Assembly: GCA_045837725.1 (NCBI GenBank)
Contig: JBEWZL010000257.1
Coordinates: forward strand, 310,001-352,571
Source: Vermamoeba vermiformis
Lineage: Eukaryota
Reading direction: 5' to 3'
DNA: 42,571 nt
A program made the position numbers and the translations under genes. A model generated the notes under the pieces. That model saw only the letters and a list, made by a program, of their open reading frames with translations, did no database searches and was not told the origin of the DNA. Shown here piece after piece: positions 1-33,612 of the stretch (positions are counted from its first letter, which is position 1; each line of letters opens with the position of its first letter).

Positions 1-208
1 CAATAGGCATTGAGACTTGCAATTTAAAGTAAAGAAAAGAATACCGACATAACTCTTCTTTCAATGGGCAACGTACAACAACAATTGTAAGTAACGGATT
101 TAGATCTAACTTTCAACAATCTATACTTTGTCAACGAAAATTTAGGAATATTGACTATAATAATTAGCCCTTATTATGACATTATTTGTAGTAATTTTTA
201 ATTCTTAG

Positions 209-1033
209 TTCAAATTTCGTGGGCAATTCACCCTTGCGCTTTATGAACGAAGACACATTCCTTGTCATGCTTAAACACCTTGCAGTAAGCGATTATGTAC
301 ACTTGACTATATTGTGTCGCAATTTCAATCAGCTCTTTGGCTCGGTAAGCAAGATTCAGAAAAAATTTTAGATCGAAAACTCATCCCTGTACAATTCCAG
401 AATAACTTTCTTTGGGCTCAAATGTGCGAAATTCTAGCTAGTAAGCGACGGCCTGCCGAAACATTCTCTCCTTCTGATGATATTTCGCTGGACGAGGAGA
501 TGTACGGTACGGACACAAGCAGCGTGGCTCGCGTCCTCCTTGCCTCGTTCAAAGGCCAAAAACTGATGGTCAATGGCGCACCTTTGAGGCCTAGAGACGA
601 GTTAAATGTGCGCGACAAACACTTGGTGAGCCAGTTCAATTTCAAAGAGGCCATCAAGAAGTACTACATCCACTACATTCAGCGTATGGCCTTGCAAACA
701 ATGTGCTTTCGCTACACGTCAGGCACTAGCGCCACATCTTCAATAGAGGTCAGAGCATACGACGGCAAATTCAAAGACGTGTGGGCTAAGGCAGATCTGA
801 AGAAACACAAGTGCGCGCAAGACGTTTATTATTACGTCGACTTTGGGTGCAGTCCACAGAAACTCGAAAAAATGCAACAAGATAGCGTGGCAACGCCATT
901 GTACAGCGAACTCGGTGGCCGCTTAGTCGTCTATCAAATATCGGTTGTGGAGCCACGTAAGCGAGGCTACATTTCGCGAATGCCTGCACGACCAGTGAAG
1001 CGAATGCCACATATTGAAATTAAGAAAAAATAA
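209..1033 (+). CDS. Hypothetical protein, 3' exons (5' end unresolved, may lie outside the window)
   Basis: Long terminal exon 401-1033 after ttccag acceptor; short upstream exons with gtaag donors (~209-285); basic C-terminus; no family recognised. Confidence 0.5.
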
Positions 1034-1173: not shown

Positions 1174-3341
1174 ATGTCTGAAAGGCGGCCTCTGCTTATT
1201 AACATGGCTCATCCACAACATAATCACCACCATCAAAATGTAAGTGCGATCGAGGATCTCGATCCGTTTAAAATTAAAAAGATTTTGTATATTAATTTAG
1301 TGCTAATTATTTATTATAGACACATATTACCGAGCATCATTTTGGTGCGCATGCTTTGGTTAAATATAACATCGACGACAGTTCGCGATCTCGTTTCTAT
1401 GGATTAATCAGTAAGTTAAAACACTATCATCGCAATAATAATATTAAAAATATGGTAATGACGCTAGGCGTATTTTAATAAATTTATTTTTAATTTGCCG
1501 CCATTTATTTTAGAGATCCCTCGGTTGCGACAGTATTACGTTTACGATCCTAATTTGAAGAAAGAAGTGCTCATTAGAGAGAAAGACGTACGCAAGGTTT
1601 CGTGGACAGAACTGTTTTATGATTTGATTTACGTGGTCTTGGTCGATCACTTAGGTAAGACATCCAAAAAACAGCGCGTTGCACGGAATAGTCTAATAAT
1701 TACCTCAATATTATATTAGTCCACTTTTTGAGTGAGCACGCTGACAAATCACACATTTTCGTGCTTCTGTTTGCTTCGATCTACCGTGTTTGGTCCGCAA
1801 CAACGATGTACAGCACTCGCTACGATACCGATGACTTTGTAAGCAATATTATAGCATAGTATACCGACTACTATATTAATATACGATTATCTGATCAATC
1901 AAAATAATTACTAAATTTCTAACACAAACGAAATCCAGATCCACAAAATCTATTATTTGATTCAAATGTCAGCAGTCGTATGTATGGGTATCAATCTCGA
2001 AAACGCAACAGAAGAGCCGTCAATGGGCTTTACAGTCTCTTATCTCGTGGCTAAGGGCACTCTCGTTGTGATGTACGTGTACACCGTGTTCAGTGAAAAG
2101 AAATATCACAATGCATTGGTACGCACACTATAGTACTCTATATACGAATACATCTAACTATCATCGTAGTTCTGGGCGATTTACGTCGCGGTGTTTTTGA
2201 TCCCGTGGTGCTTCGCGTTGATTTTCCCGGAATGGGGCTATGTCTGCTGGCTGATTGGTCTGGCCGGGGAAGAACTGTTCATTCTCGTCGCTGTGTCTTT
2301 GCGGAAATTTGCAGCCCCGCTCAACATTGAACACTACATTGAGCGTATGGGTCTGTTCGTCATGTTGTTGCTCGGCTTGATTGTCGTCGCATTGCTCGGG
2401 GCCTCTGAAAATCACGAAATCTACGGCTACTTGTACGTCATTCGTCATATTTGATTATAGGCCATAATTAACTATGACGCTAGGGCCGCATTGATTCCGC
2501 TCTTCTTGGCCTTCGCGCTGAAGTGGACTTACTTCGACATTGAAGGCGCGCCCAAGAGAATGCACGCTATTCGTCGCAACAGCTACCTCGGTGTGCTGTG
2601 GGGATTTTTGCACATTCCTCTGCTCGTAGGCATTTGCTTCACTGCTGCTGGATTGTTGTCTATTGAGGTAAGTATCACATGTGTTATTCGTTCAGTGAAC
2701 GGAGAGATGGATATTTCGTGCTGAAAATGACACATGTCACGATATTTTTCACGTGTTATTTTGACATTTCATTGACACTTTGTACAGCACACAGTTGAAG
2801 AGCATCACGACGAGTACCCCAAATACTACGCACAATGGATGGTCTCGTCGGGCGTGGGCACTGTGTTGATCTGCATGGGTCTCATGGGATTCTTGTCGCG
2901 CAGTTACTGCAACTTCGTCATTTCAGTCAACATTCGCTTGCCTCTGCGCATAGCTGTGGGCATTGCGTGCATCTTGTTCGGTCTCACTTACGAAATGTAC
3001 GTAGAATCATTTTACGTGTTGCGCGGATCTAACATTCAAACCTAGGGAAAACACGGTGCAATATCTTGCTATTATCGGCTCAGTAGTGTTTGCCTTTGCT
3101 ATTATTGAACTGTAAGTGCCAGTCTGATAGTCATATAAGGACTATGATTGATATTAATGTCCTCTGTAGTATTGGCTCGGTGCAAAAAGAGACGTGCATA
3201 ACGCAACTGCAGTACGTGAATTTGCAGCCCGAAGAGACCAAAATGATCAATTCGACCTTCCAAAACCTTGGCGGCAACATCGCTAATTTTATGGGCAGTG
3301 CTTCGACGGATCCAGCTGGTGACAGGGACGACCAGGTCTAG
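1174..3341 (+). CDS. Low temperature requirement protein A (LtrA)-family multi-pass membrane protein, multi-exon
   Basis: Spliced exons give RKVSWTELFYDLIYV, YSTRYDTDD and HYIERMGLFVMLLLG, characteristic LtrA motifs; many hydrophobic helices; His-rich N-terminus. Confidence 0.85.
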
Positions 3342-12554: not shown

Positions 12555-14014
12555 ATGGCTAATTTGGTTATGAATATTACGCTAATATTCTCGTTGGCTT
12601 TGCTAGTCTCAACAGTCACCGCTGCATGCAAACCAAACGATGATTCTTGGATTTTGATGGATGCACCCGTTGGTGGCACGCCAACAGGCTCCTTTGATTT
12701 CGATAATTTAGGATTCTCCATTAGAACCCCTTGGTCTTATTTTGACTCTCCTCTCGCCGTTTACAACGACGGCGCCGGCCAAGTTGCGTATATAGGTGGA
12801 GCTACTGGTAACTTGTACAACTACATCTTTCAAGCGTCTGGCGGTAGCACGTGGGACGGAGGAGCAGTATGGGACGGATTTGGCGACAAGCCTGGCTATT
12901 ATTGGCTGACGAATGATCCGGACAATACTTGCTATTTGAGCTTTGTAAATCCCGTTGCAATAGTTACATTGCGAGCCCAAGGCGATGCAAATGCTGCCAG
13001 CATTAACACTATTGAAGCGTATGATGTTAATGACACTTTAATTGCATGCTATAGCGACATCAACGAAAGAGGCGGAACGAATCGTTATTTTGATCTCGGA
13101 TTTCGGACCAGCATTCCTATGAAAAAGCTGGTATTTAAGGGCATTATATCTATGGATAACTTTCAGTTTTGTACGTTAATAGCTCACTTTTTTAGACCCA
13201 TATTATTAATCTGTGCTTCTTTAAAGCCGATCCGTTGTGCCAGCCTGACTCGTGCGACACTAACGCCTGGTGCTTCAACAACCTTGCTAACAGCGGAGTC
13301 ATGTGTTCGTGCAAGACCGGCTATAGTGGCGAAGGATCTGTGGGCACCTGCACTGGTAAGTTTTCAATGGAGATAAAAGTGGTGATAGTTGTTAAAATAT
13401 CAATGCGGTGCAGACAAGAACGAGTGCGACCTCTCGGTTTGTGCTGCCCACGCGACCTGCACGAACTTGCCAGGCACATATAACTGTACGTGCAATGAAG
13501 GCTACGAAGGTGACGGCTTCACCAACTGCACTGGTACGTTACAGACACCACTGAACGAGCATTGTTTGACACTGCACCTCTTAGACATCAACGAGTGCGA
13601 CATAGGGCTGTGCAGTCCGAATGCAGTGTGCGTCAACTACGAGCCCGGCTTCAACTGCACGTGCAATGATGGCTACGAAGGTGACGGCCTCACATGCACA
13701 GGTAACGTGTCGCTGACTTGACACCAAGCACCACCGCATCGCTGACACAACACTTTGCTCTCGCAGACAAGAATGAATGTGCCACCAATCCGTGCGATGT
13801 GAATGCGAGCTGCACCAACACTGAAGGCTCGTTCACGTGTGCGTGCAATGACGGCTACACTGGTGATGGCAACACGTGCACTAAGATCGAGACACCAACT
13901 GCTCCAACAGCGGCTCCTACATCTAGCCCCAAGGGCAAGGTTTCATCAGCTGACCGACCCTCTTCGCTCTGTGAAATAGCGTTGTCGGTGGTCGCAGTTA
14001 TCTTAATGTTATAA
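12555..14014 (+). CDS. Secreted/GPI-type EGF-repeat surface protein, paralogue of 7184-8662
   Basis: Homologous N-domain (PTGSFDFDNLGFS, PGYYW, GDANA, GTN), four EGF exons, hydrophobic tail. Confidence 0.85.
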
Positions 14015-14096: not shown

Positions 14097-15555
14097 TCAA
14101 TCTAATGGGTTGACCTTCAAGTGGTAAGAGCGCATCACCGCGAGTGCTTGCCTCGGTCCCATGTGCGGTGGACTGACGATGAGGTAGGCTGGCTCCGAGT
14201 ACGAGGGTCGAAATTTCTGTCGAAAGGATAGGATGGCATTCTGCCACGCGAATCTGTTGATCATCTTGAAGACTCCGCGAATGACTACGTATTAGTCGGT
14301 TAGTATTAGCGTAGTCTATTGTCAATTAAGTGCGCACCATATTCTTCGACCATAGCAAATCCCCGAATGTCTCCGAATTCACTTGACGGCGAAGGTCCGA
14401 ATGAAATGTAAGTGCAGCCTTCTTTGCCTAGTGAAGTGAATGTTTCGTCGATTAACAATTCGGTCGTTCCTTTAGTAATTAGAAATTATTAATTATTAGC
14501 GCACGCGATATTTTAGAATTTAAGGATATTTCCTACCTTTCGGAGCATGCGGGATCTGCAGCAGATGCTCCACTAGGTAGCCGTTCTTTCCTTTTAACGA
14601 TACTAATGAAGTGATTGCGATGACCTTGCCGTGCTGAGAAACGTAAAAGAGACGTGACCGAGGCTTGAACAACTGGATGTCGCAGAGATAAAATTGTATA
14701 CCTCGTCTATTCTGATTCCACGCATCAGCGACCTATACAGAATTACAATGTTAATTGCTTGTAATTTCCCTTTATAGCTATAGCTCTCACTTGGATAATT
14801 TGGTTTTGCAATTCGAGGTCTGGATGCGTATCGAATTTGTGCTCCCCTACTATCAAGCCATCTTTTCGGGCCTTGACAATGTTTCGTTTCAGATCTGCAG
14901 TCAATTTCAGCAATTATTGTGAATTTTTCTCCGTAAATCACAGTCAAATTTTGAAACTCGTGATGGTACCTTTTGCGATCGCTCTATACTCGCTTGGATT
15001 GAATATTAAGTCCTTTCCGTAGTTCAGAATGCCACAATTTCCGCTTTTCAAAGCTAAGTTCGCGAATTCGGGGCTTGCTGTGGCAAAGAGCATGTCCGCT
15101 CCTTTCTTTCTGCAAAACTCTTTGAATCTCTCCAATAATGCACCTTGATGTGAATCACACATCGGATCTCCAAAGGCTACAACGCATCCCAAATTTTCCT
15201 GATCCATTCGTAAGTTTCAGCACCTTATTAAATAATTATGTCAATTATTATTAGAACTTACACGATATGCGATGCATCCTTCGATGCCTTCTACGCGGAA
15301 AAGGCTTGTGAGCGGATCCAGAAGGCAATTGGACACTGTACCGCCAAATTTGTCCGTCCAATCGGTTAGAGTGTTGACCGAAAGCCCTTGTTTATCTTCT
15401 CCTCGTAGTATAGCGGCTCTATTCTCTGAGAACACTATGGACGGAGCGGACTTTCCGTTCGTCTTCTTGCTTTCGAGAATTAAGGCCATTAATAGCATTA
15501 CAAACTTGCGAATCCATTCGTAAAACTTTAAAACGACAATATTCCGTGTTAACAT
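14097..15555 (-). CDS. Stand-alone DUF2156 / phosphatidylglycerol lysyltransferase C-terminal-like (aminoacyl-tRNA transferase) protein; start uncertain (possible extra 5' exons to ~15704)
   Basis: KFGGTVSNCLLDP..FRVEGIEGCIAYR, VVAFGDPMC, HAPK/GTTELLI...ISFG, LSFRQKFRP...PAYL motifs; no MprF flippase TM domain or aaRS domain. Confidence 0.75.
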
Positions 15556-15817
15556 GGTGACTAAATTAAATTGAAAGGAGTATACCCTCAGAGCCGGTCC
15601 ACCTTGATCAAAGGCAAGAAAGCTCGGTGAAAACCTGCAGAAATGAAGTAAAGATTGCGAATCAAAATTATCCTAAGATGTAACATTACCTGCTTTTTAA
15701 TCATGGTTAGTGCACCGAGAATGAATTAATCGAGGCACGATTGCGAAAATTTATTGTAACAATTTCTGACAAATTGTGAAATGATACCTGAACTCCGTAA
15801 CTGGTCAAAGATCTTGA

Positions 15818-17078
15818 TCATGTTGCTAAATCCTCAATGTCTCCAATAGTACCAGTTGCGCAGGAAGGTTGTTGAGCAGCTGTAACACTCTTCACCCAGT
15901 CGTAAATGCCTTGGCGTTGCACGAATCTGTTGCCGTCAAATCCACTTTGAGACAGCGCCACTTGCACGGGCACGTCGAGAATGGACTGCGAGGGGACTTT
16001 GCTGCCGTTCTGACAGTTCAAGAACCTCATGCGCTCGTCTAAAATGAGGTACGAGTCTTTCATCACGTCGTTGGGCTCGGCCACCAATGACGTTTGGGCT
16101 GCGTGACGGGCCAGAAACTCGTTGAATTGCTCGGTCGAGATGAGAAGTCCGTGAGCATCTTTGTTTGTTCTACAAGCCATAGTTAAGACCTAGAACAATG
16201 TATACTCGAGTCTAGCTACAAAACTTACTTATTTTCACCAACATTCTCGCCGTCAATGAGCAGCACTTGAAACACTTTCCATCTGAACGGAGCCAAGGCT
16301 GCAATGTGTGCGTTCATGTCTTCGTGATAGTTGTAGCGACAAATCACCGAGTTCATCTTGAACTTGATGTTGTATTTTCGGCACCACTGCGCGACATTGT
16401 AGACTTGTGCCACGTGCTTACCATTGCCGCGGCCAATTTTGATGTTGGTCTGTTCGTCAAAACTGTCGCACGAGATAGCTAAGATGTCGAGGTACTGGCC
16501 CCACGTTTGGAACCAATCTTCTTTAATCTTGCTGCCGTTTGACACGATGCTGACTGCCAGACCAAGTTCCTAAAATAGAAAATTGACATCTGTCATGATA
16601 GGTATAACCCCAAAACAAATTTATTGTCAGAATCTCGTCCGCGGACGAATGAATTGCTAATCCTACCTTTGAATACTTGCACATTTGTCCTAATAGTTTG
16701 GGAAACAGAAAGGGCTCGCCTCCTAAGAATAATATGGTTAATAGATGCTGCGCATCTGTATTCACATTCAGTTCGATTTACCTGCGAAGTTAATTTTCTT
16801 CATCCCGGCTTCGCGCAACAGTTTGATACCACGCATTGCCTCCTCTGATCAAAATAATAATTAATTAGGATCGAACACGTTGTCTTAGCGTGTCTTTCAA
16901 AGTTACCTATCGGCAGTTTGAAGGTGTTGGTTTTGGTGTGAAAGCAGAACTTGCATTCGTAGTTGCAATCGCGCGAGAAGTGATAATTGACGCTGATTGG
17001 CTTCAATTGATTTCGATATCTGCGCCAGATGAAAATGGCAGCTGACACGAAGCCAAGGGCGAGTAGAATTAGCCACAT
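15818..17078 (-). CDS. RSAD2: Viperin (RSAD2-like radical SAM ddhNTP synthase), multi-exon
   Basis: N-terminal hydrophobic helix; [20 protein letters not shown] (CxxxCxxC), [26 protein letters not shown]...[39 protein letters not shown]. Confidence 0.96.
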
Positions 17079-17291
17079 TTGAAGTAAAAGAATGTAATAT
17101 ATTAACAGGTGTTTGTGTTGTTGATTAAAGTATTAAAATTAAGTGAAAAAATGCGAAAAAGAGTTAAATAGCCTTCGCTTTCTCAACACGCCGTGTCTAG
17201 TTTTGGGCTCACAAAATCACGTGCGGGACAAATAGAAAGGACCTAAAGAGTCATTAATCTCATTATACGTTTGCCGTTAGATGAAAACATC
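17079..17291. promoter_or_regulatory. Putative bidirectional promoter between viperin and CYTH genes
   Basis: Only 213 bp between divergent ATGs; contains a CACGTG palindrome at 17218-17223. Confidence 0.5.
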
Positions 17292-18095
17292 ATGTTGCGA
17301 ATTGTTAGCAGGGCACCAGTCGCGCTAAAAAGTAGATGGAGCGGAAAATTCAGCGTGCAAAAGAGATTGCTTGCTAGCGACTCAAAAGGTGATAAAATTG
17401 AAATAGAAGTCAAATTTCCATTTACTAAGGCCGAAGAAGACAAAATTCAAGCCATCTCAAAGCTCATCTCGATCAAACGCTTTACGGACCACTATTTCGA
17501 CAATAATAGTTATACTCTTACCTCAAAGGATATTTGGCTCAGACAAAGAGACGACAAGTGGGAATGCAAAACTACCAGGCTGGATTTCGAACCAAGCTCA
17601 AAACCTGAGAACGTGGTGAGTTACGATCTATTACTCTGACTATATTAATCTCAATGTACTTAATAGCAAGCTCTCGGTGATAGATACCATGAAATCGAGA
17701 AAGAGGCGGACATAATTCAGTACTTACACGGATGTCATTTTCTACGCACAGGAATTGCAGAAAATTCTGACCTTCTCCAAATATTGCTAGCCAATGGATA
17801 TACGTCATTTTGTAGCATTGAGACTACAAGAAAAAAATATCAGTACCGAGATTTAACTATTGACTTGGATTTGACTAATTTTGGGTACCAAATTGGCGAA
17901 ATCGAAATAGTGGTCAATTCTAAAGAACAAATTCTTACCGCTGAAGAGAAGATCCATCGCTTTGCACGAGAACTAGGACTGAGTATCAATTCTGGCGTGC
18001 CTGGCAAAGTCCTGTCGTATTTGCAACGCTTCAGACCCGAGCATTATCGAGCACTACGCAATAGTGGCTTGTTGGACGCTAAAGGAATTAAATAA
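17292..18095 (+). CDS. CYTH-superfamily triphosphatase, thiamine-triphosphatase (THTPA)-like, 2 exons
   Basis: IEIEVKF (ExExK), FTDHYFD, DIWLRQRD..WECK, DLDLTNFGYQIGEIE, PGKVLSYLQRFRPEHY; Arg/Ser-rich N-terminus resembling a mitochondrial presequence. Confidence 0.9.
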
Positions 18096-18163: not shown

Positions 18164-19778
18164 TTATTTGGCAATGTGAAAAACAATAACGAGCAAAATA
18201 CTCGTAAAACAAGATACAACCAGCTGTACTCCACCAGAGACATGTGACTGTGGAGTTGATTGCCCTTGTGGTGTTTGAACTGGCAGTGCGTCATCAGAGC
18301 ACGAGTGACCGAAGATTTGATTAACGCAATGAGAGTTTGCGCCACAGTCGACTGCTTCGCTTGTGCATCGATCAACTGGAATTAACCAAATGTCTTTGAA
18401 TGGGTTATCATATTGCGGGTCGTTTGCTCCACCGTAGAAGAACACATCACCGTCAACATTGAGTCCATTCGCACCTCCTTGATAATACCTACCAGGCATC
18501 GCTGAGCCAGGAGTACGGTAGTTGCTGAAATTGCCTGGAAGATTTTGTTTCGATGGGTCTCCGTAGAGCAGTTTCCATTGCTTCAAAGTCTTGTGGAACA
18601 GCCAAACATCATTTTGTGCGGACCACGCATCTTCATTTTGAGATCCGTTGACGACATAGCCACCACCAGCAGCGACAAGTATCGTGCCGTCTTTGCGATC
18701 AACAACCGTCATGCCTTCTTTGGCAGGAGGAATATTGCCAGGATGAAAGTCATCTGAAACAACCGTTGGTCCGTTCCAGAAGTTAGCGTTAGAGCCGTAC
18801 TCGAGCTGCCATTGATGCGTACGAGTGTCATAGGACCACATGTCACTGAAGTCGTTCCTTTCTCCGTTTTCCAAGTAACCACCTCCACCAAAAAGCCAAA
18901 CGCGGTCGTTCTCGTCAATATCGCAGCCAAGAAGAGATCGACCGCCATAAATGGGGTTACTGCCAAACTTCGTAAAAAGATGACCGAAGTGGAGGACGGT
19001 AGTGTTTCCGCTGACGAAAGTCCATTGCAGTGAGGTGGTATTGAAGTGCCAAGCGGTGTCTGTATAGCCAAAATAACTATCGCCCGAAATAAGCCACAAG
19101 TTATTCTTGGAATCGGTGACTAAACACGCGCCAGTTCTTTGTCCCGGATTGACGTCATCACCTGGTTGACCTGGATTGCTACCAACGATTTGTTCATTAT
19201 ATCCTTTCTGCCCTGTTATCCAAGTGAACATATAAGACGTTGTGTTGAACATCCACAGCTCGCAGCATTCATTCTGTGAGATGAACCAGATGTTGTCGTT
19301 GCGATCTATCGTGCCTTGGAAGAAGTTGACTCCACCAGGGTAGTTGTCTTCTGATGGCACTCTGAGTTCACCAGGATTACGGAGATAAGTGCTCGAGTTG
19401 CCTGGACCAGCCACCCATCGATACAGATCTGTTTTTGGATCGTAGTTCCAAACTGTCATCAGCCAATCTCGCGGATTGTAATTGCGAGTACCGAACAGGA
19501 TCCAAAGTGTCTTCTTCGAGTCCATTACAACTATGGGCATTTCTCCTCGGCCGCCAGCACCAACGGAAATATTGGTCCAAACTCCTCGTTCAGGGAACTG
19601 TTCCATGTAATCCTCGGGCGAATCTAAGATAATAATGAATTAATTAGTGCGAAGTGAAGGTATATTTCTTCTTACCATATTTGATATTTGATGGAGAAAC
19701 CCAGATCGGATCTACGGCAGCAGTAAACGTTGACGCGACCAACAGTGAGGCCAGCAAAGCTTTCAATAATAACATCAT
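18164..19778 (-). CDS. Secreted Kelch/galactose-oxidase-type beta-propeller + EGF + GPI-type tail, 2 exons
   Basis: Signal-peptide exon (ATG 19778); repeated LW.FGG...D.W.Y/F...QW blades; C-terminal 5-Cys EGF-like module and hydrophobic tail. Confidence 0.85.
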
Positions 19779-29057: not shown

Positions 29058-31268
29058 ATGGATTTGAATAATTTGACGCCAGAACAACAACAGCAAGTTG
29101 TTCTGCTCTTGCAACAAATCCAAGGACAAGCTTCCAATACTAACGCAGCCGAAAATTTAGCCTCGGCTATGCAGGTATTGTTTATAGAGACGTAATATCA
29201 TAATATTACAATTCTCTAATGGGATTTATTGAATTAGCAACAAGCATCCACGACGCTCGTTGAAAACATTAAAATCTTAGCAGTGCTCAAACTGCTGAGT
29301 GCGCGCGTGCAACAACAACCGAGTCACGTCGCGCAAGACCAACCATTTGTCGAGGGATCACAAGGATTTGGTTCTAATAACAACGCAGCGCCTGTTGGTG
29401 ACTCGTCGGTGTTGCTGCAGCAGATCTTGGAGCTGAAACAGCAAATGATCAACAGTACGCATCGGTCCATTAATACAACACTCTAAATATGGCTCTCGTT
29501 GACATTTTATTCTTGCTTCAGATCCAAACGACGAAGGTTTTGGATTGCAAGGACAGCCCCCGCCACAGCACGACGAGCACGAGTACTATCCAAACAACAA
29601 CAGGCACGATAACGGCAATTATCGGCGCGAACACAATAGTCCGCCACGGTGGCACAGGGACAGTAGGGGAGACAGGGATCGCGAGTACAGTAGGGACCAC
29701 AGTCCACCACGTCGTGAACGAAGTCCTCCGCACCATGGCTCGGCATCGGGTCGCCAAAGACCGCCCAAATGGGTGCGCGAACAACAGAAATCAGCGCCAG
29801 CAGCTGGCACGATACCGACACAGCCACCGCCCATTGGTCAAGGTGCTGTCTTCACAGCGCAAAACCCAACGGATATTTTGGCCTCGTATTTGACTGACGA
29901 GGACGTGGTCATTCCAAAGTTCAGTTTGATGCAGCCTGTGATCACTGGCACTAGCAATAGCAATAATAACACCACGCCTAAACGTGCGAGACCAGTTCCA
30001 GCACAAGACACGCCGCCACAGGCAGTCAATCCACCACCCATCAACAGACCTAAGTCAGATCTGCCTAAGAGCGATGTGTTGGTAACACCAGCACCGAATC
30101 CGAGTCCAGTTAAAGTGACCAATGGCCCACCGCCAATGCCTGGCACAGTACCGCCAAAACTTGCTCCTAAGAAAATGCCGTCATCGCCAGTCAAAGGCCC
30201 AGTACCACTCAGCAGTAGCGGCAAATTGCCACCGCCTGCACGGAAAGGCCCGCCATTGAACTCACCTGGCGCGCAAAAGCCAGCCAAAGTGTCGCTCGAG
30301 GGCGTTCCACCGCCTTATCCGCCTCCAAAATTCCCCCCAAACAACCACTGCACACCACTCCGACACATTTGAATCCTTCTCATTCACAGCCACAACCAAT
30401 GCCACCCAAACAATACGCCCCTAAAGTCGGTTCAAATCCACCGCCACGAACGACATTCCCGCCAAAACAACCCCATTCGTACCCGCAGTCCAAACCTTAC
30501 CAGCCACCCTCACACGCACCAAAGCAATCGCACCATGTACAGCACCCACCTTACGCACAGCCCCAACATTACCAGCCACCAATCCAACATCCACCCACAC
30601 AGCCTGCAGCTCAGCCTTATTATCAACATCCACCGCCACAAGTCCCTAATGCAGCACCAACTATTAGCCCCGCTGCAAATGGCCAGGGTCGCGATCTGTT
30701 TCAAGAAGCGACAGTTGAGGACTTGCAACAAGTGCACCAGTTCTTGACTGAGGTGCTGGAAATTCAACAAGAGGCTGCCAAGGACAAGTCGCGTGCAGCC
30801 GTTCAACGCGCGCCCACTCAGCCTGGCAAGCCCGCGCAACAAGTGGGACCTGCACTGCCACCGCAGGCCAGCAGTTACGCGCCTCCGCAAGTCAAACAAC
30901 CACCGCTGCTCACTAAACGACCCGCGCCGAGTGTTGAAACACCAGTCGCGTTCAAGAAGCACAAGACCGATCATTATCCACCCACTGCTGCTCCCAAACA
31001 CGCTGCAGCTGCTTACCCGCCCAAGGCACAGCCAATGCCCGTCGCGCCCGTGGCCCCACAAGCAGTGCCACCACAGCCCATGCCATACCCCGCAGCGTAC
31101 CCTGCAGGTTATCAATATCCGTATCCGTACCCTGCTTACGATTACAGCGCCTATCAGTACTACTACGGCGCTGCTTATCCACCGCCAGGAGTTGCCCCGA
31201 CAGCAGCGGCGAGTTATCCGCCACCGGGGTATTATCCTGCCGTACCGCCTGGCTACCCGAAGAAATAA
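29058..31268 (+). CDS. Pro/Gln-rich low-complexity protein with Arg/Asp-rich segment and YP-rich tail; one apparent frameshift at ~30333-30338
   Basis: ATG 29058, two introns, ORFs 29545-30372 and 30369-31268 with continuous composition. Confidence 0.7.
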
Positions 31269-31354
31269 CTGTAAATAAACACCTGTTAATTGAAAAGGTT
31301 TTTTATTCGCGTACAAAATACAAGTGAAATAAGTTACAGTAGTGAGAATTAGTG

Positions 31355-33612
31355 TTAAATTCTGATTTGAGGAATCAACGAGCCAATGTCATCGATGTCG
31401 TCCAAATTAGGCATGTCAGGATTGGGCACATTGTCCTCTTGACCAAAATTGTACAACTTGACGGGCTCTGGCGCTGGTTGCACGGGTTGAGGTTGCGGCT
31501 GTGGTTGTTGGGGTTGTTGTTGCACGGGCATGTATTGCTGCTGTTGCGTGGGTGTTGAAGGGGCCATGGTTTGAATGGGCTGGGGTTGTGGCGGGATGAT
31601 TTGTTGCGGCGGTGTTGCGAGCACTGTTGGCTGCTTTGGTGTGCCGTACGGTGAGCCGTTGGGGACGCCTGATGAATAAGGAGAGTGGTTGTACTGTTGC
31701 GAGGTATAAGGTGAGCCGTTGTTGGGCACACCTGATGCATAGGGCGAGTAGTTGTTGGACATGGTGTTGCGCTGCGAGTTGTTGATGTTGCCGGTGAATC
31801 CCTGCATCACCACTGTGTCGCTCGTGTCGCGGAATCGTTTCACTTGAATGTTCTCGCCAAATGCGCGTTGAATGAGTGCAACAACGCCGTCAAATATCGC
31901 GTCCATGTCGTTTTTAATGTCCACAACGTCTGACACGTACGCGTCATCTCCTGCAAACATTTTGGCATTTTTGCCACTCTCGCGCATTTGATCTGCGAGA
32001 CTAGGCATTTCACGCGCCCTATAAACGCATTAGTTACTTGAAATAACAAAGTCGTTTGAGTGTTTGTCCGGCACGTACTTGGCAATGACAGCGCTGGCCA
32101 GCTGCGAGTCACTGATCATCGAAGCAACATTGGCGCACGTGCTCACGAATTCTTCAGCGGCTTTACCAACCTTCTTGCCGAGCTCAACACGAGTGTCGAC
32201 ATCAGGGGCTTCTAAAAAGCGACCGACCTGCAGTGACACGTGTCAAACTCTGTCAACGATAAAAACCATTCTTGTGCACGTACCTCCAGGACTACTGATT
32301 CAATCGCGTTTGAAATTTCTTTAGTTTGTTTTGGCGTCTCAAGATGTATCAGCTTGTCAATTTCATCGAGTGCGATTTTGATTGTCTGATCCAGCGCCGC
32401 TTCGTTGGCAGTACCTAATCAACAATATTGGGATTAATACAACACTAGTATAATTGAAGTTATTACCTTTTCCGAATGTAGCTAGCTTTCCCACGGACTC
32501 GCGCAAACTCGAGACTCCTTTTTTGAGCTCGTCTTGGATGCTTTTGTCGAATGCGTTCTGCGCAGCCACGAGGCAATCTCCGGCCAATCTCACGCCCAAA
32601 GCACCGGCAGTGTTGTTCTCACTCGCAATCTGAACGCGAGATTAGTATACCATATTTGGTAATTGTACCGTACTGTCGCAAAGTGCTGTACTGACCTCAT
32701 TAATTAAATCTTTTTTAGCCTTTTCCGCGAGTGATTTAGTGATAGCCGTGACTTTAATAACGTTCTGCAATATTTTCTTGGTAATTGTCACCACGTCGTG
32801 TCTGTAGCCGTCGACTGCGGAATATTTGCCGCTAAAATTAAAAATTAAAATCGTTGCAGCGTGTTTTGTACTAACAGAGTATATTTGATGAATACAAACG
32901 ATTGAATAATTAATCATGACTAAGCACTTACCGTCCTTCCCATTTATCGCGAGATTTGTGCAGCTCGCTCAAACTTTCAATTGCTCGCATCCACTCTTTC
33001 ATATCTCGTTCATCTTCGGAATAAATAAGGTACGTGCGTTCAGATGTTACCACTTGAAAGCAATTTTTTTTCTGAATAACGGTTGATTAATTTCAAATTA
33101 AAATCGAATTTTCTTTTACTCGATCTGAGGCAATTTCTGCCGTCACGACTAGAACTATTATGATTCATTTAAATGTCGACAATATTAAAATTAATAAATA
33201 TGATTACCTTGACTTCTGGACCGGCTTTTTCGACGGCATTAATTTTGCTGAACAAGATGCAGCCCTTGGAAACCATGTCCTTGCGAGTTGCGAAGTAGTA
33301 CATTAAGTTATCTTGCAATATAAACCACCTATCATAATAACGTCAATAAATAAATATAACTTGCTAGCGCTATTTTAATTGATCCAGATGAAATTTTAAA
33401 TTGGGAATGCGAATGTAATGCAATTAATCGTACAAAAAATCGATGCATAATTTGTACACGCATATTTTGATGTCGATAGATTTAACTAACGCGTGGTATA
33501 AAAATTGTTAATGACGCGCAGATGTGGTTGACACTTACCTCTTTTTCCAGGTCTTATTTCGGCCCCCGACCTTAGTGAGGTAGCCCTCTTTAATCATACC
33601 GAACGAGCTCAT
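31355..33612 (-). CDS. PH-domain protein with helical-bundle (talin/vinculin-like) middle and Pro/Gln-rich tail
   Basis: [31 protein letters not shown] PH start; Ala-rich amphipathic helices downstream. Confidence 0.8.

Follow-up and report, generated by a model that had tools for sequence, protein, structure and literature searches.

A viperin gene and a thiamine-triphosphatase-like CYTH gene on a shared promoter at an amoebal locus: a candidate two-gene module with a probably incidental DUF2156 neighbour

Few immune enzymes are common to organisms from bacteria through humans; viperin is one of them, and its family makes 3'-deoxy-3',4'-didehydro-NTP (ddhNTP) chain terminators. To our knowledge, the linked partner known for it so far is a substrate-supplying kinase. 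The DUF2156 enzymes, for their part, transfer amino acids from aminoacyl-tRNA to small acceptors, and include ErgS and ErdS, which are free-standing or AspRS-fused sterol aminoacyl transferases. The kinase linkage takes the form of the RSAD2-CMPK2 pair in animals and of viperin-kinase linkage or fusion in lineages throughout the tree of life (Shomar et al., bioRxiv 10.1101/2023.09.13.557418; this preprint and the papers given below by PMC accession are cited from excerpts). The same preprint counts four fusions of eukaryotic viperins to a "triphosphatase or cyclase" domain, which the excerpt defines by COG2114/PF00211 or COG1437, a class that spans CYTH and class III cyclase domains. Beyond the viperin reaction itself, ddhCTP in humans is dephosphorylated to ddhC and then tailored further, the excerpted account naming no enzyme for this (PMC10913068), and the mitochondrial RNA polymerase is reported to misincorporate ddhCTP (PMC11982959).

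The window, i.e., the whole 42.6-kb stretch of DNA that was analysed, carries three tightly packed genes. A gene for viperin, the RSAD2-type radical SAM nucleotide dehydratase, lies at 15818..17078 on the minus strand, its five exons (17078-16907, 16844-16782, 16722-16667, 16569-16229 and 16169-15818) coding for 327 aa; divergent from it, on the plus strand, stands a THTPA-like CYTH gene of the triphosphate-tunnel type at 17292..18095 (two exons, 17292-17615 and 17667-18095; 250 aa), with 213 nt (17079-17291) between the two ATG codons. Downstream of viperin, its ATG 262 nt from the viperin stop, a stand-alone, LPG_synthase_C-like DUF2156 gene occupies 14097..15555 on the minus strand (six exons, 15555-15262, 15198-14970, 14894-14791, 14732-14537, 14469-14338 and 14284-14097; 380 aa). 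All three are real, spliced and transcribed genes: the frames of the models are closed, the 10 introns are without exception GT..AG and 51–97 nt long, and the Logan contigs of the transcriptome-like run X3 lack every one of them (5/5 in DUF2156, 4/4 in viperin, 1/1 in CYTH), with run X6 giving 5/5, 3/4 and 1/1, so that intron-less contigs from the two runs together agree with each predicted intron. The earlier note had read these positions, the three family identities, the eukaryotic character of the locus and its geometry—DUF2156 co-oriented downstream of viperin, CYTH divergent 213 bp upstream—from the letters and their translations, and in all of these the gene models, the family and structure matches and the spliced transcripts bear it out, the positions exactly. 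Each gene is represented by a contig of its own in X3 and X6, and word depths in X3 are 83.9, 21.4 and 18.4 for the three genes vs 0–3.6 in the flanking genes, word depth in such contigs being a poor measure of expression. The raw RNA runs X21 and X23, which bear the species label of X1, the best DNA match, contain viperin-exon reads that are mostly 90–95% alike with foreign flanks, CYTH at about 1–2x, and no reads on DUF2156, the source being one whose viperin is only 90–95% alike.

Genes are densely packed in the window and the gaps between them short, and in so dense a genome the mere adjacency of three genes is to be expected; it gains meaning only through comparison with other loci. The short gaps and introns favour a reading of viperin and CYTH as incidental neighbours, in which CYTH would be a housekeeping thiamine- or tripolyphosphate-phosphatase, the promoter would be common through compaction of the genome, and any similar arrangement in a relative would reflect common descent. 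We consider this somewhat unlikely, and the evidence on both of its sides is given below along with the family and synteny data.

The identity of the viperin gene is supported from several directions. Scanned exon by exon, its exons 1, 4 and 5 match TIGR04278 colinearly (profile positions 53-88, 137-247 and 250-341, with 47.4, 168.1 and 107.8 bits) and NF038283 with 29.1, 122 and 66.1 bits; no single exon reaches the cut-off in these scans, and the rough sum of 217 bits for NF038283 exceeds its cut-off of 180. Exon 1 carries the radical SAM CxxxCxxC motif as CNYECKFC, residues 22-57 aligning with positions 53-88 of TIGR04278, and the translation has an N-terminal hydrophobic helix. Exon 4 finds mouse viperin (5VSL) at 1.3e-43, all nine of its PDB matches being viperin or viperin-like enzymes. 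Among named relatives, the closest is an EukProt transcript of Vermamoeba vermiformis, at 81% identity over 254 aa, and viral contigs yielded no relatives of viperin exon 4 or of CYTH.

The CYTH protein falls in the branch of thiamine triphosphatase (THTPA), its substrate being predicted from sequence. Both exons match PF01928 above the cut-off of 23.2 bits (30.5 for exon 1, 39.4 for exon 2), and for both the top five PDB matches are thiamine triphosphatases (ThTPases), the best solved structures being those of the human and mouse enzymes (1.7e-15; 6.6e-4 for exon 1). The EXEXK motif is kept, as KIEIEVKF aligned to LIEVERKF of the mouse ThTPase, and so are the residues aligned to Tyr39, Trp53, Arg55, Arg57 and Lys65 of that enzyme (Y, W, R, R and K). 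In the excerpted review, Tyr39 and Lys65 form the hydrolytic dyad and Trp53 is base-stacking (PMC8615392). Ahead of the EXEXK motif, the N-terminus is extended by about 35 aa of basic character (9 K/R and 2 D/E in the first 36 residues). A word-index search with exon 2 gave three partial relatives, and a profile search with a THTPA-like alignment has turtle and gecko thiamine-triphosphatase among its named matches. To all appearances, then, this is a standard member of the THTPA branch, and mammalian THTPA is reported to have close to absolute specificity for thiamine triphosphate (PMC8615392, in excerpt), both of which speak for a housekeeping gene that merely neighbours viperin. The physiological role of the family was termed obscure by a 2021 review.

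CYTH might also work with viperin in a manner other than as a phosphatase of its product, i.e., by cyclising a nucleotide or generating a signal, or by clearing competing tripolyphosphate or thiamine triphosphate. Class IV adenylate cyclases do belong to the CYTH superfamily, as do tripolyphosphatases (PMC8615392, in excerpt), exon 2 has a weak match to TIGR00318 cyaB (5.4e-4), and the label attached to the published fusions admits a cyclase. However, it is ThTPases and not CyaB that match CYTH best, and the equivalents of the hydrolytic dyad and the base-stacking Trp are kept, which makes this role very unlikely.

A diverged relative of the locus on a metagenome contig (L001) has the same head-to-head pair. 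Its viperin runs from about 1990 to 757 on the minus strand, with a last exon 67% identical to that of the window, and its CYTH from 2182 to 3003 on the plus strand, 59% identical to the window protein; the break points of the viperin exon pieces correspond between the two. By contrast, the gene downstream of viperin differs: in place of DUF2156, L001 has a membrane-anchored Nudix hydrolase (1-543, minus strand; PF00293, 36.7 bits vs a cut-off of 21.1, E=5e-9), its ORF truncated by the contig end, and this Nudix gene has no counterpart in the window. Neither the window nor L001 gave a CMPK2- or ADK-type kinase in tblastn searches with three queries. The arrangement in L001 may be simple common descent, yet retention of the pair despite a changed flanking gene argues against incidental neighbourhood.

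The region between the paired genes points the same way. Aligned locally, the 213-nt bidirectional promoter region of the window (17079..17291) and its L001 equivalent score 17 vs 10.4 +/- 1.7 for shuffles, a score reached by 4 of 1000, whereas for the downstream intergenic region (upstream of DUF2156), taken as a control, the score was reached by 751 of 1000 shuffles; the two shared promoters resemble each other beyond what chance would give. The likeness resides in three collinear blocks. The first, the palindromic block TCAACACGCCGTGT at 17183..17196, has an exact counterpart, TCAACACGGCGTGT, at 2083-2096 in the L001 intergenic region, where 0.02 matches are expected at <=2 mismatches; elsewhere in the window it recurs only on its own reverse strand and at one site with two mismatches (32788). 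The palindrome of the shared promoter is TCAACACGSCGTGT. The other two blocks, CACGTG and GGGACAAAT, lie at 17218..17233 with their L001 order preserved; GGGACAAAT occurs once in the window, and a 9-mer here is common to both promoters. Conservation of these blocks, set against an intergenic region next door that is not conserved, again sits poorly with a promoter held in common through compaction.

A third eukaryote-type locus is fungus-like (L002): a THTPA-like CYTH, an ADK-family kinase (1.1e-24) and viperin stand side by side in that order, the viperin being 64% identical to a Trichoderma protein and the CYTH ORF matching our THTPA-like profile at E=2e-21 and human ThTPase at 5.5e-7. The origin of this locus is inferred from sequence because GC sampling marks the record holding it as a chimeric assembly; a histone family search of the G003 record found no match, which is not decisive. 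A THTPA-like CYTH thus lies within two genes of viperin at 3/3 readable eukaryote-type loci, a base that comprises the window, one relative and one fungus-like locus, and its recurrence beside a fungus-like viperin-kinase pair is a further point against coincidence. The scan of genome contigs for viperin loci gave three, L002 and two prokaryotic ones (L003 and L004), at which CARF-wHTH regulators rather than CYTH flank the viperin-like gene. At 15 further prokaryotic viperin-like loci (L006-L020, +/-1.5 kb; 14 without L020, which comes from an unpublished genome, G305), no THTPA-like profile match at E<0.5 was seen among 160 open frames, Pfam found no CYTH on 10 neighbouring frames of prokaryotic viperin-like loci, and 0/401 Clostridia genomes matched the THTPA-like alignment.

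We found no viperin-CYTH fusion among the best 150 of 963 CYTH matches, nor among the top 120 of the 708 for viperin, which favours incidental neighbours, whereas the published eukaryotic viperin fusions with a domain labelled triphosphatase or cyclase (Shomar et al., in excerpt) count against them. In literature searches, co-mentions of viperin and CYTH were none visibly on the CYTH domain and probably concern cytohesin genes; nothing was found joining "thiamine triphosphatase" with viperin, and nothing relevant on a viperin-like genomic context in Trichoderma virens.

The DUF2156 gene is strongly diverged. Exon 2 matches PF09924 just above the cut-off (1.9e-6, 27.6 bits vs 27.5; profile 44-109) and exon 5 weakly and colinearly (0.094, 12.2 bits; profile 222-255), the exon-by-exon scan giving nothing on the other four. 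In an Atlas feature search, 27 of the 30 matches were PF09924 clusters, and a profile built from 30 Bacillota DUF2156 proteins scored 19.6 bits over two colinear stretches across exon junctions. Exon 1 had no usable Atlas match, and the PDB offered no meaningful match for exon 2 (E<=10) or exon 1 (E<=1) besides gelsolin noise. A word-index search with exon 2 returned one protein among 57 candidates, 97% identical and called in prokaryote style through an intron. In the excerpt of PMC8913301, eukaryotic DUF2156 is placed in Dikarya only, so an expressed gene outside Dikarya is noteworthy in its own right, and is the first hint we have found of the family in a non-fungal eukaryote.

The earlier note had suggested that the three genes could form a pathway, or else a co-regulated antiviral or antibacterial island. 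In the pathway, viperin would make a ddhNTP, CYTH would dephosphorylate it and DUF2156 would aminoacylate the resulting ddh-nucleoside from aminoacyl-tRNA, which would yield a tailored antiviral or antibacterial metabolite. This pathway has in its favour the tight packing and transcription of all three genes at the depths given above, the existence in humans of ddhC derivatives bearing amino acids (PMC10913068, in excerpt) and the use of aminoacyl-tRNA on small acceptors by DUF2156 enzymes. The viperin-CYTH part of the proposal gains support from the L001 pair, the promoter alignment, L002 and the preprint fusions, and the conserved linkage that the note had looked to synteny for is seen for CYTH near viperin in L001 and L002, though not at the 15 prokaryotic loci. 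The DUF2156 part is not supported: searches turned up no DUF2156 match in L001, where Nudix fills the slot, or in L002-L004, and neither the shared promoter motif nor any conserved block lies upstream of the gene. Moreover, the literature search found nothing naming viperin and DUF2156 together, and the eukaryotic DUF2156 enzymes characterised so far act on sterols (PMC8913301, in excerpt). The three-gene pathway is hence extremely doubtful, and DUF2156 is probably a lineage-specific neighbour outside the conserved viperin-CYTH unit.

We therefore prefer to see viperin and the THTPA-like CYTH as a conserved, divergently transcribed and co-regulated two-gene module with DUF2156 as an incidental neighbour, a reading to which we assign a probability of about 0.5, and in which the co-regulation, the CYTH substrate and compartment, and any role in defence are inferred. 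Viperin, anchored by its N-terminal helix, would make ddhNTP chain terminators, while CYTH, expressed from the promoter common to both, would act as a metal-dependent triphosphate-tunnel hydrolase that trims phosphate off the product of viperin or off a pyrimidine triphosphate closely akin to it. CYTH may act in mitochondria, since its N-terminus is basic and presequence-like as judged by amino-acid composition; there it might shield the cell's own polymerase, start the route to a free ddh-nucleoside, or both. In L001, the membrane-anchored Nudix hydrolase downstream of viperin might have a similar phosphate-trimming role. A conserved triphosphate-removing partner would supply the missing downstream half of the viperin pathway, and could explain both how self-poisoning by chain terminators is limited and whence the free ddh-nucleosides observed in infected humans arise; conversely, the pairing with viperin hints at what the puzzling thiamine-triphosphatase family acts on.

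A more far-reaching proposition, which we regard as unlikely and put forward as speculation, is that the eukaryotic THTPA family began as a viperin partner—a ddh-pyrimidine nucleotide triphosphatase that shielded the mitochondrial polymerase or launched ddh-nucleoside production—rather than for thiamine triphosphate. Were this so, a later shift to thiamine triphosphate in animals could be understood from the resemblance of the thiamine aminopyrimidine ring to cytosine, and the long-unexplained THTPA would gain a testable ancestral role in innate immunity. Separately, and with as little confidence, the amoebal DUF2156 might extend tRNA-dependent aminoacylation of lipids or small molecules to a supergroup outside fungi.

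Set beside the described systems, the locus resembles RSAD2-CMPK2 and the viperin-kinase pairs in that viperin stands beside a nucleotide-metabolism gene, with a linkage kept in eukaryotes and, in L002, a kinase as well; it differs in that the head-to-head partner in the window is a triphosphate-removing CYTH rather than a substrate-supplying kinase. With the viperin fusions of Shomar et al. it shares the genetic coupling of the same two activities in eukaryotes, but here the genes are separate and on a shared promoter, and the excerpted preprint comes without subfamily, mechanism or synteny. The prokaryotic viperins (pVips) differ in that the 15 viperin-like loci read yielded no CYTH. Mammalian 25-kDa THTPA (PDB 3BHD, 3TVL, 2JMU and 5A64) is the best structural match of the amoebal CYTH, down to the conserved equivalents of EXEXK and of the five residues listed above, whereas the amoebal protein is set apart by its basic N-terminal extension, its linkage to viperin and a substrate that is predicted. 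Finally, the DUF2156 gene parallels fungal ErgS/ErdS and the synthase domain of bacterial MprF in its PF09924-type domain, being free-standing like ErgS and a spliced eukaryotic gene, while its divergence is great (27.6 bits, from a single exon) and it sits in an amoebozoan-like host as against the Dikarya of the described enzymes (PMC8913301, in excerpt).

The earlier note had placed a viperin, a CYTH and a DUF2156 gene side by side in the window, and all three are confirmed there as intron-bearing genes: viperin runs on the minus strand from 17078 to 15818 (5 exons, 327 aa), the DUF2156 gene starts 262 nt past the viperin stop and runs from 15555 to 14097 on the same strand (6 exons, 380 aa), and the CYTH gene occupies 17292–18095 on the plus strand (2 exons, 250 aa), its start codon lying 213 nt from that of viperin. 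Splice junctions were placed by eye on a print-out of the minus strand and by script; once the exons are joined all three reading frames close, and every one of the 10 introns (51–97 nt) is of the form GT..AG. Intron-less Logan contigs, a separate one for each gene, are found in X3 and X6, two runs of coded organisms labelled "RNA?": introns are skipped in X3 for DUF2156 (5/5), viperin (4/4, intron 4 with a few altered letters at its borders) and CYTH (1/1), and in X6 at 5/5, 3/4 and 1/1, respectively. The X3 word depth of 83.9 for viperin, 21.4 for DUF2156 and 18.4 for CYTH, against 0–3.6 for the flanking EGF-type and Kelch-type genes, is weak evidence because the runs were picked for containing this stretch. 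The X3 viperin contig differs from the window at 16 positions; those of DUF2156 and CYTH are identical to it.

The flanking genes are a multi-exon plus-strand gene at 12555–14014, with cysteine-rich EGF-like repeats recognised by eye and no Pfam match in the one piece scanned, and, on the minus strand at 18164–19606, a gene whose 480-aa product has Kelch repeats and a hydrophobic tail at its C-terminus; both are nearly missing from the transcript contigs spanning the trio. Farther along, 29500–32000 is GC-rich (52–56% against ~40% elsewhere) and very strongly skewed in both GC and AT; long open frames overlap there on both strands, and three of them lack a Pfam match. Raw RNA reads of the runs X21 and X23 derive from a viperin merely 90–95% alike, with different flanks, and none fall on DUF2156; they are therefore uninformative on co-expression. 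These runs share their species label with the best DNA holder, and the mismatched reads fall on the viperin exons (15818–17078): this is a second viperin lineage, a paralogue or a diverged strain, which is highly expressed.

Database searches were run with single exons as queries. The nine PDB matches of viperin exon 4 are without exception viperins or viperin-like enzymes, mouse viperin among them at 1.3e-43; exons 1, 4 and 5 match TIGR04278 and NF038283 colinearly, and exon 1 carries CNYECKFC preceded by a hydrophobic N-terminal helix. Among named viperins the nearest is a EukProt transcript of Vermamoeba vermiformis (identity of 88% over exon 4 and 81% over 254 aa), with further near matches in the amoebozoans Luapelamoeba and Ceratiomyxa, which makes an amoebozoan close to Vermamoeba the most likely source of the window. 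Both CYTH exons exceed the Pfam CYTH cut-off, and their strong PDB matches are solely human and mouse thiamine triphosphatase (ThTPase), the THTPA branch of the superfamily. A profile of CYTH exon 2 and three relatives matched 963 proteins at E<=1e-3 among 1.84 billion representatives, the best 150 of them being 97–375 aa long; the few named matches comprise reptile thiamine-triphosphatases, a transcript of the amoebozoan Nematostelium and one "adenylate cyclase class IV". The alignment with mouse ThTPase retains EXEXK and the residues at Tyr39, Trp53, Arg55, Arg57 and Lys65, among which a 2021 review assigns base stacking to Trp53 and catalysis to the Tyr39/Lys65 dyad, while terming the physiological meaning of the ThTPase reaction obscure (PMC8615392). 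Ahead of EXEXK lie ~35 basic-rich residues (among residues 1–36, 9 are K/R and 2 are D/E), whose composition makes them a possible candidate mitochondrial presequence; a comparable extension is present in the CYTH protein of L001, a metagenome contig from a diverged relative.

L001 (3163 nt) was the one contig returned by a metagenome scan with the CYTH alignment. Its viperin (minus strand, about 1990 to 757) and CYTH (plus strand, 2182 to 3003) lie head to head with start codons ~190 nt apart, matching the layout of the window; identity is 59% for CYTH and 67% for the last viperin exon, and the pieces of the viperin coding region are interrupted at equivalent positions. The slot downstream of and co-oriented with viperin is occupied by a Nudix hydrolase (1–543, minus strand); DUF2156 was not found in L001, nor a counterpart of the Nudix gene in the window. 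The pair has therefore outlasted a change of neighbour, which counts against the main rival reading, namely that the adjacency is inherited and functionally neutral. The conserved promoter blocks count against it as well: three blocks, the palindrome TCAACACGSCGTGT, CACGTG and GGGACAAAT, follow one another in unchanged order in the viperin–CYTH intergenic regions of the window and L001, and the local alignment score of these regions of 17 is matched by 4 of 1000 shuffles, whereas the regions downstream of viperin are without conservation (751 of 1000 shuffles attain the score).

The viperin alignment also reveals a conserved acidic C-terminal tail (…PSCA[TS]G…DIED…) in both amoebal viperins (window 15821–15870, L001 763–810); vertebrate viperins end in a tryptophan. 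The L001 Nudix N-terminus, in which basic residues come after a hydrophobic helix, is much like that of viperin, which suggests that the two proteins may share a membrane. JGI metagenomes also hint at a third relative: the source contigs of a viperin fragment (P0289) and a CYTH fragment (P0004) are both listed as exactly 30,214 nt long, and are probably a single contig that would carry both genes.

The recurrence of the arrangement at a fungus-like locus likewise weakens the case for neutral adjacency. A profile search of genome contigs with the viperin alignment yielded three loci (L002, L003 and L004), and the viperin of L002 passes NF038283 and has its nearest counterparts in ascomycetes (64% identity to a protein from Trichoderma). 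An ADK-family kinase lies upstream of and divergent from it, and directly past the kinase comes an open frame of 217 aa, free of introns, which matches the THTPA-like profile at 2e-21 and human ThTPase at 5.5e-7; this frame is the sole match in the 6.7-Mb record to P0149, a 197-aa protein from the CYTH profile search (E<=0.001). The record (G003:C1) is titled as a 6.65-Mb actinobacterial (Lapillicoccus) MAG chromosome and appears to be chimeric: samples (L066–L072) at 0.5, 2.0 and 3.5 Mb have 67–69% GC and long open frames, and those at 5.0, 5.6, 5.7 and 6.5 Mb, the part with the viperin locus, have 29–49% GC and mostly short frames. Thus, a THTPA-like CYTH lies within two genes of viperin at 3/3 readable eukaryote-type loci (the window, L001 and L002).

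In prokaryotes, a THTPA-like CYTH was absent from L003, L004 and 13 further viperin-like loci of Clostridia genomes (15 distinct, L006–L020, with L020 from an unpublished genome), Pfam detected no CYTH in 19 neighbouring frames of such loci, and the THTPA-like alignment matched 0 of 401 Clostridia genomes. What recurs there are CARF-wHTH regulators: a CARF-like/HFX_2341_N plus winged-helix protein adjoins the viperin-like gene in three members of the Clostridia-class sample (L003:221–868, minus; L007:2373–3047, plus; L016:2328–2972, plus) and one archaeon (L004:8950–9825, minus). These neighbours suggest that a nucleotide signal may control pVip expression.

The DUF2156 assignment is weaker than those of viperin and CYTH, yet consistent: exon 2 clears the PF09924 cut-off by 0.1 bit, exon 5 gives a weak colinear match, PF09924 clusters make up 27 of 30 matches in an Atlas feature search, and a profile of 30 Bacillota DUF2156 proteins aligns with the spliced product in two colinear stretches spanning exon junctions (19.6 bits). 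Eukaryotic DUF2156 has been described as confined to Dikarya fungi, as ErdS and ErgS, with the suggestion that diverged forms might occur in other eukaryotes (PMC8913301); the amoebal gene is a separate, modest novelty. By likeness to characterised relatives, the acceptor that it would aminoacylate is more likely a membrane lipid or sterol. The earlier note had suggested that all three genes could form one pathway or defence island. Its viperin–CYTH coupling gains support from L001, the promoter blocks and L002, but the inclusion of DUF2156 lacks comparative support: no DUF2156 was found at either of the other two eukaryote-type loci, L001 and L002, and the promoter palindrome is missing upstream of the window copy.

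The best-supported reading is that viperin and a THTPA-like triphosphatase form a conserved, probably co-regulated module whose additional phosphate-handling genes vary: a Nudix hydrolase accompanies it in L001, a kinase at L002. The CYTH enzyme would hydrolyse the triphosphate of a ddh-nucleotide, possibly in mitochondria. Mitochondrial RNA polymerase has been reported to misincorporate ddhCTP (PMC11982959), and infected humans to contain ddhC, the dephosphorylated product, along with amino-acid-bearing ddhC derivatives (PMC10913068). The coupling opens the role of the THTPA family to direct testing. Our literature search found no paper on viperin together with DUF2156 or with "thiamine triphosphatase", and among co-mentions of viperin and CYTH none visibly concerned the domain, these probably being mentions of cytohesin genes. 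CYTH-type cyclases correspond to COG1437. A linkage of viperin to kinases is described as kept up in eukaryotes, and some eukaryotic viperins are listed as fused to a "triphosphatase or cyclase" domain defined through COG2114/PF00211 or COG1437 (Shomar et al., bioRxiv 2023); set against this known theme of viperin partners, the viperin–CYTH coupling is a new variant, which has been just glimpsed in print in the form of rare fusions.
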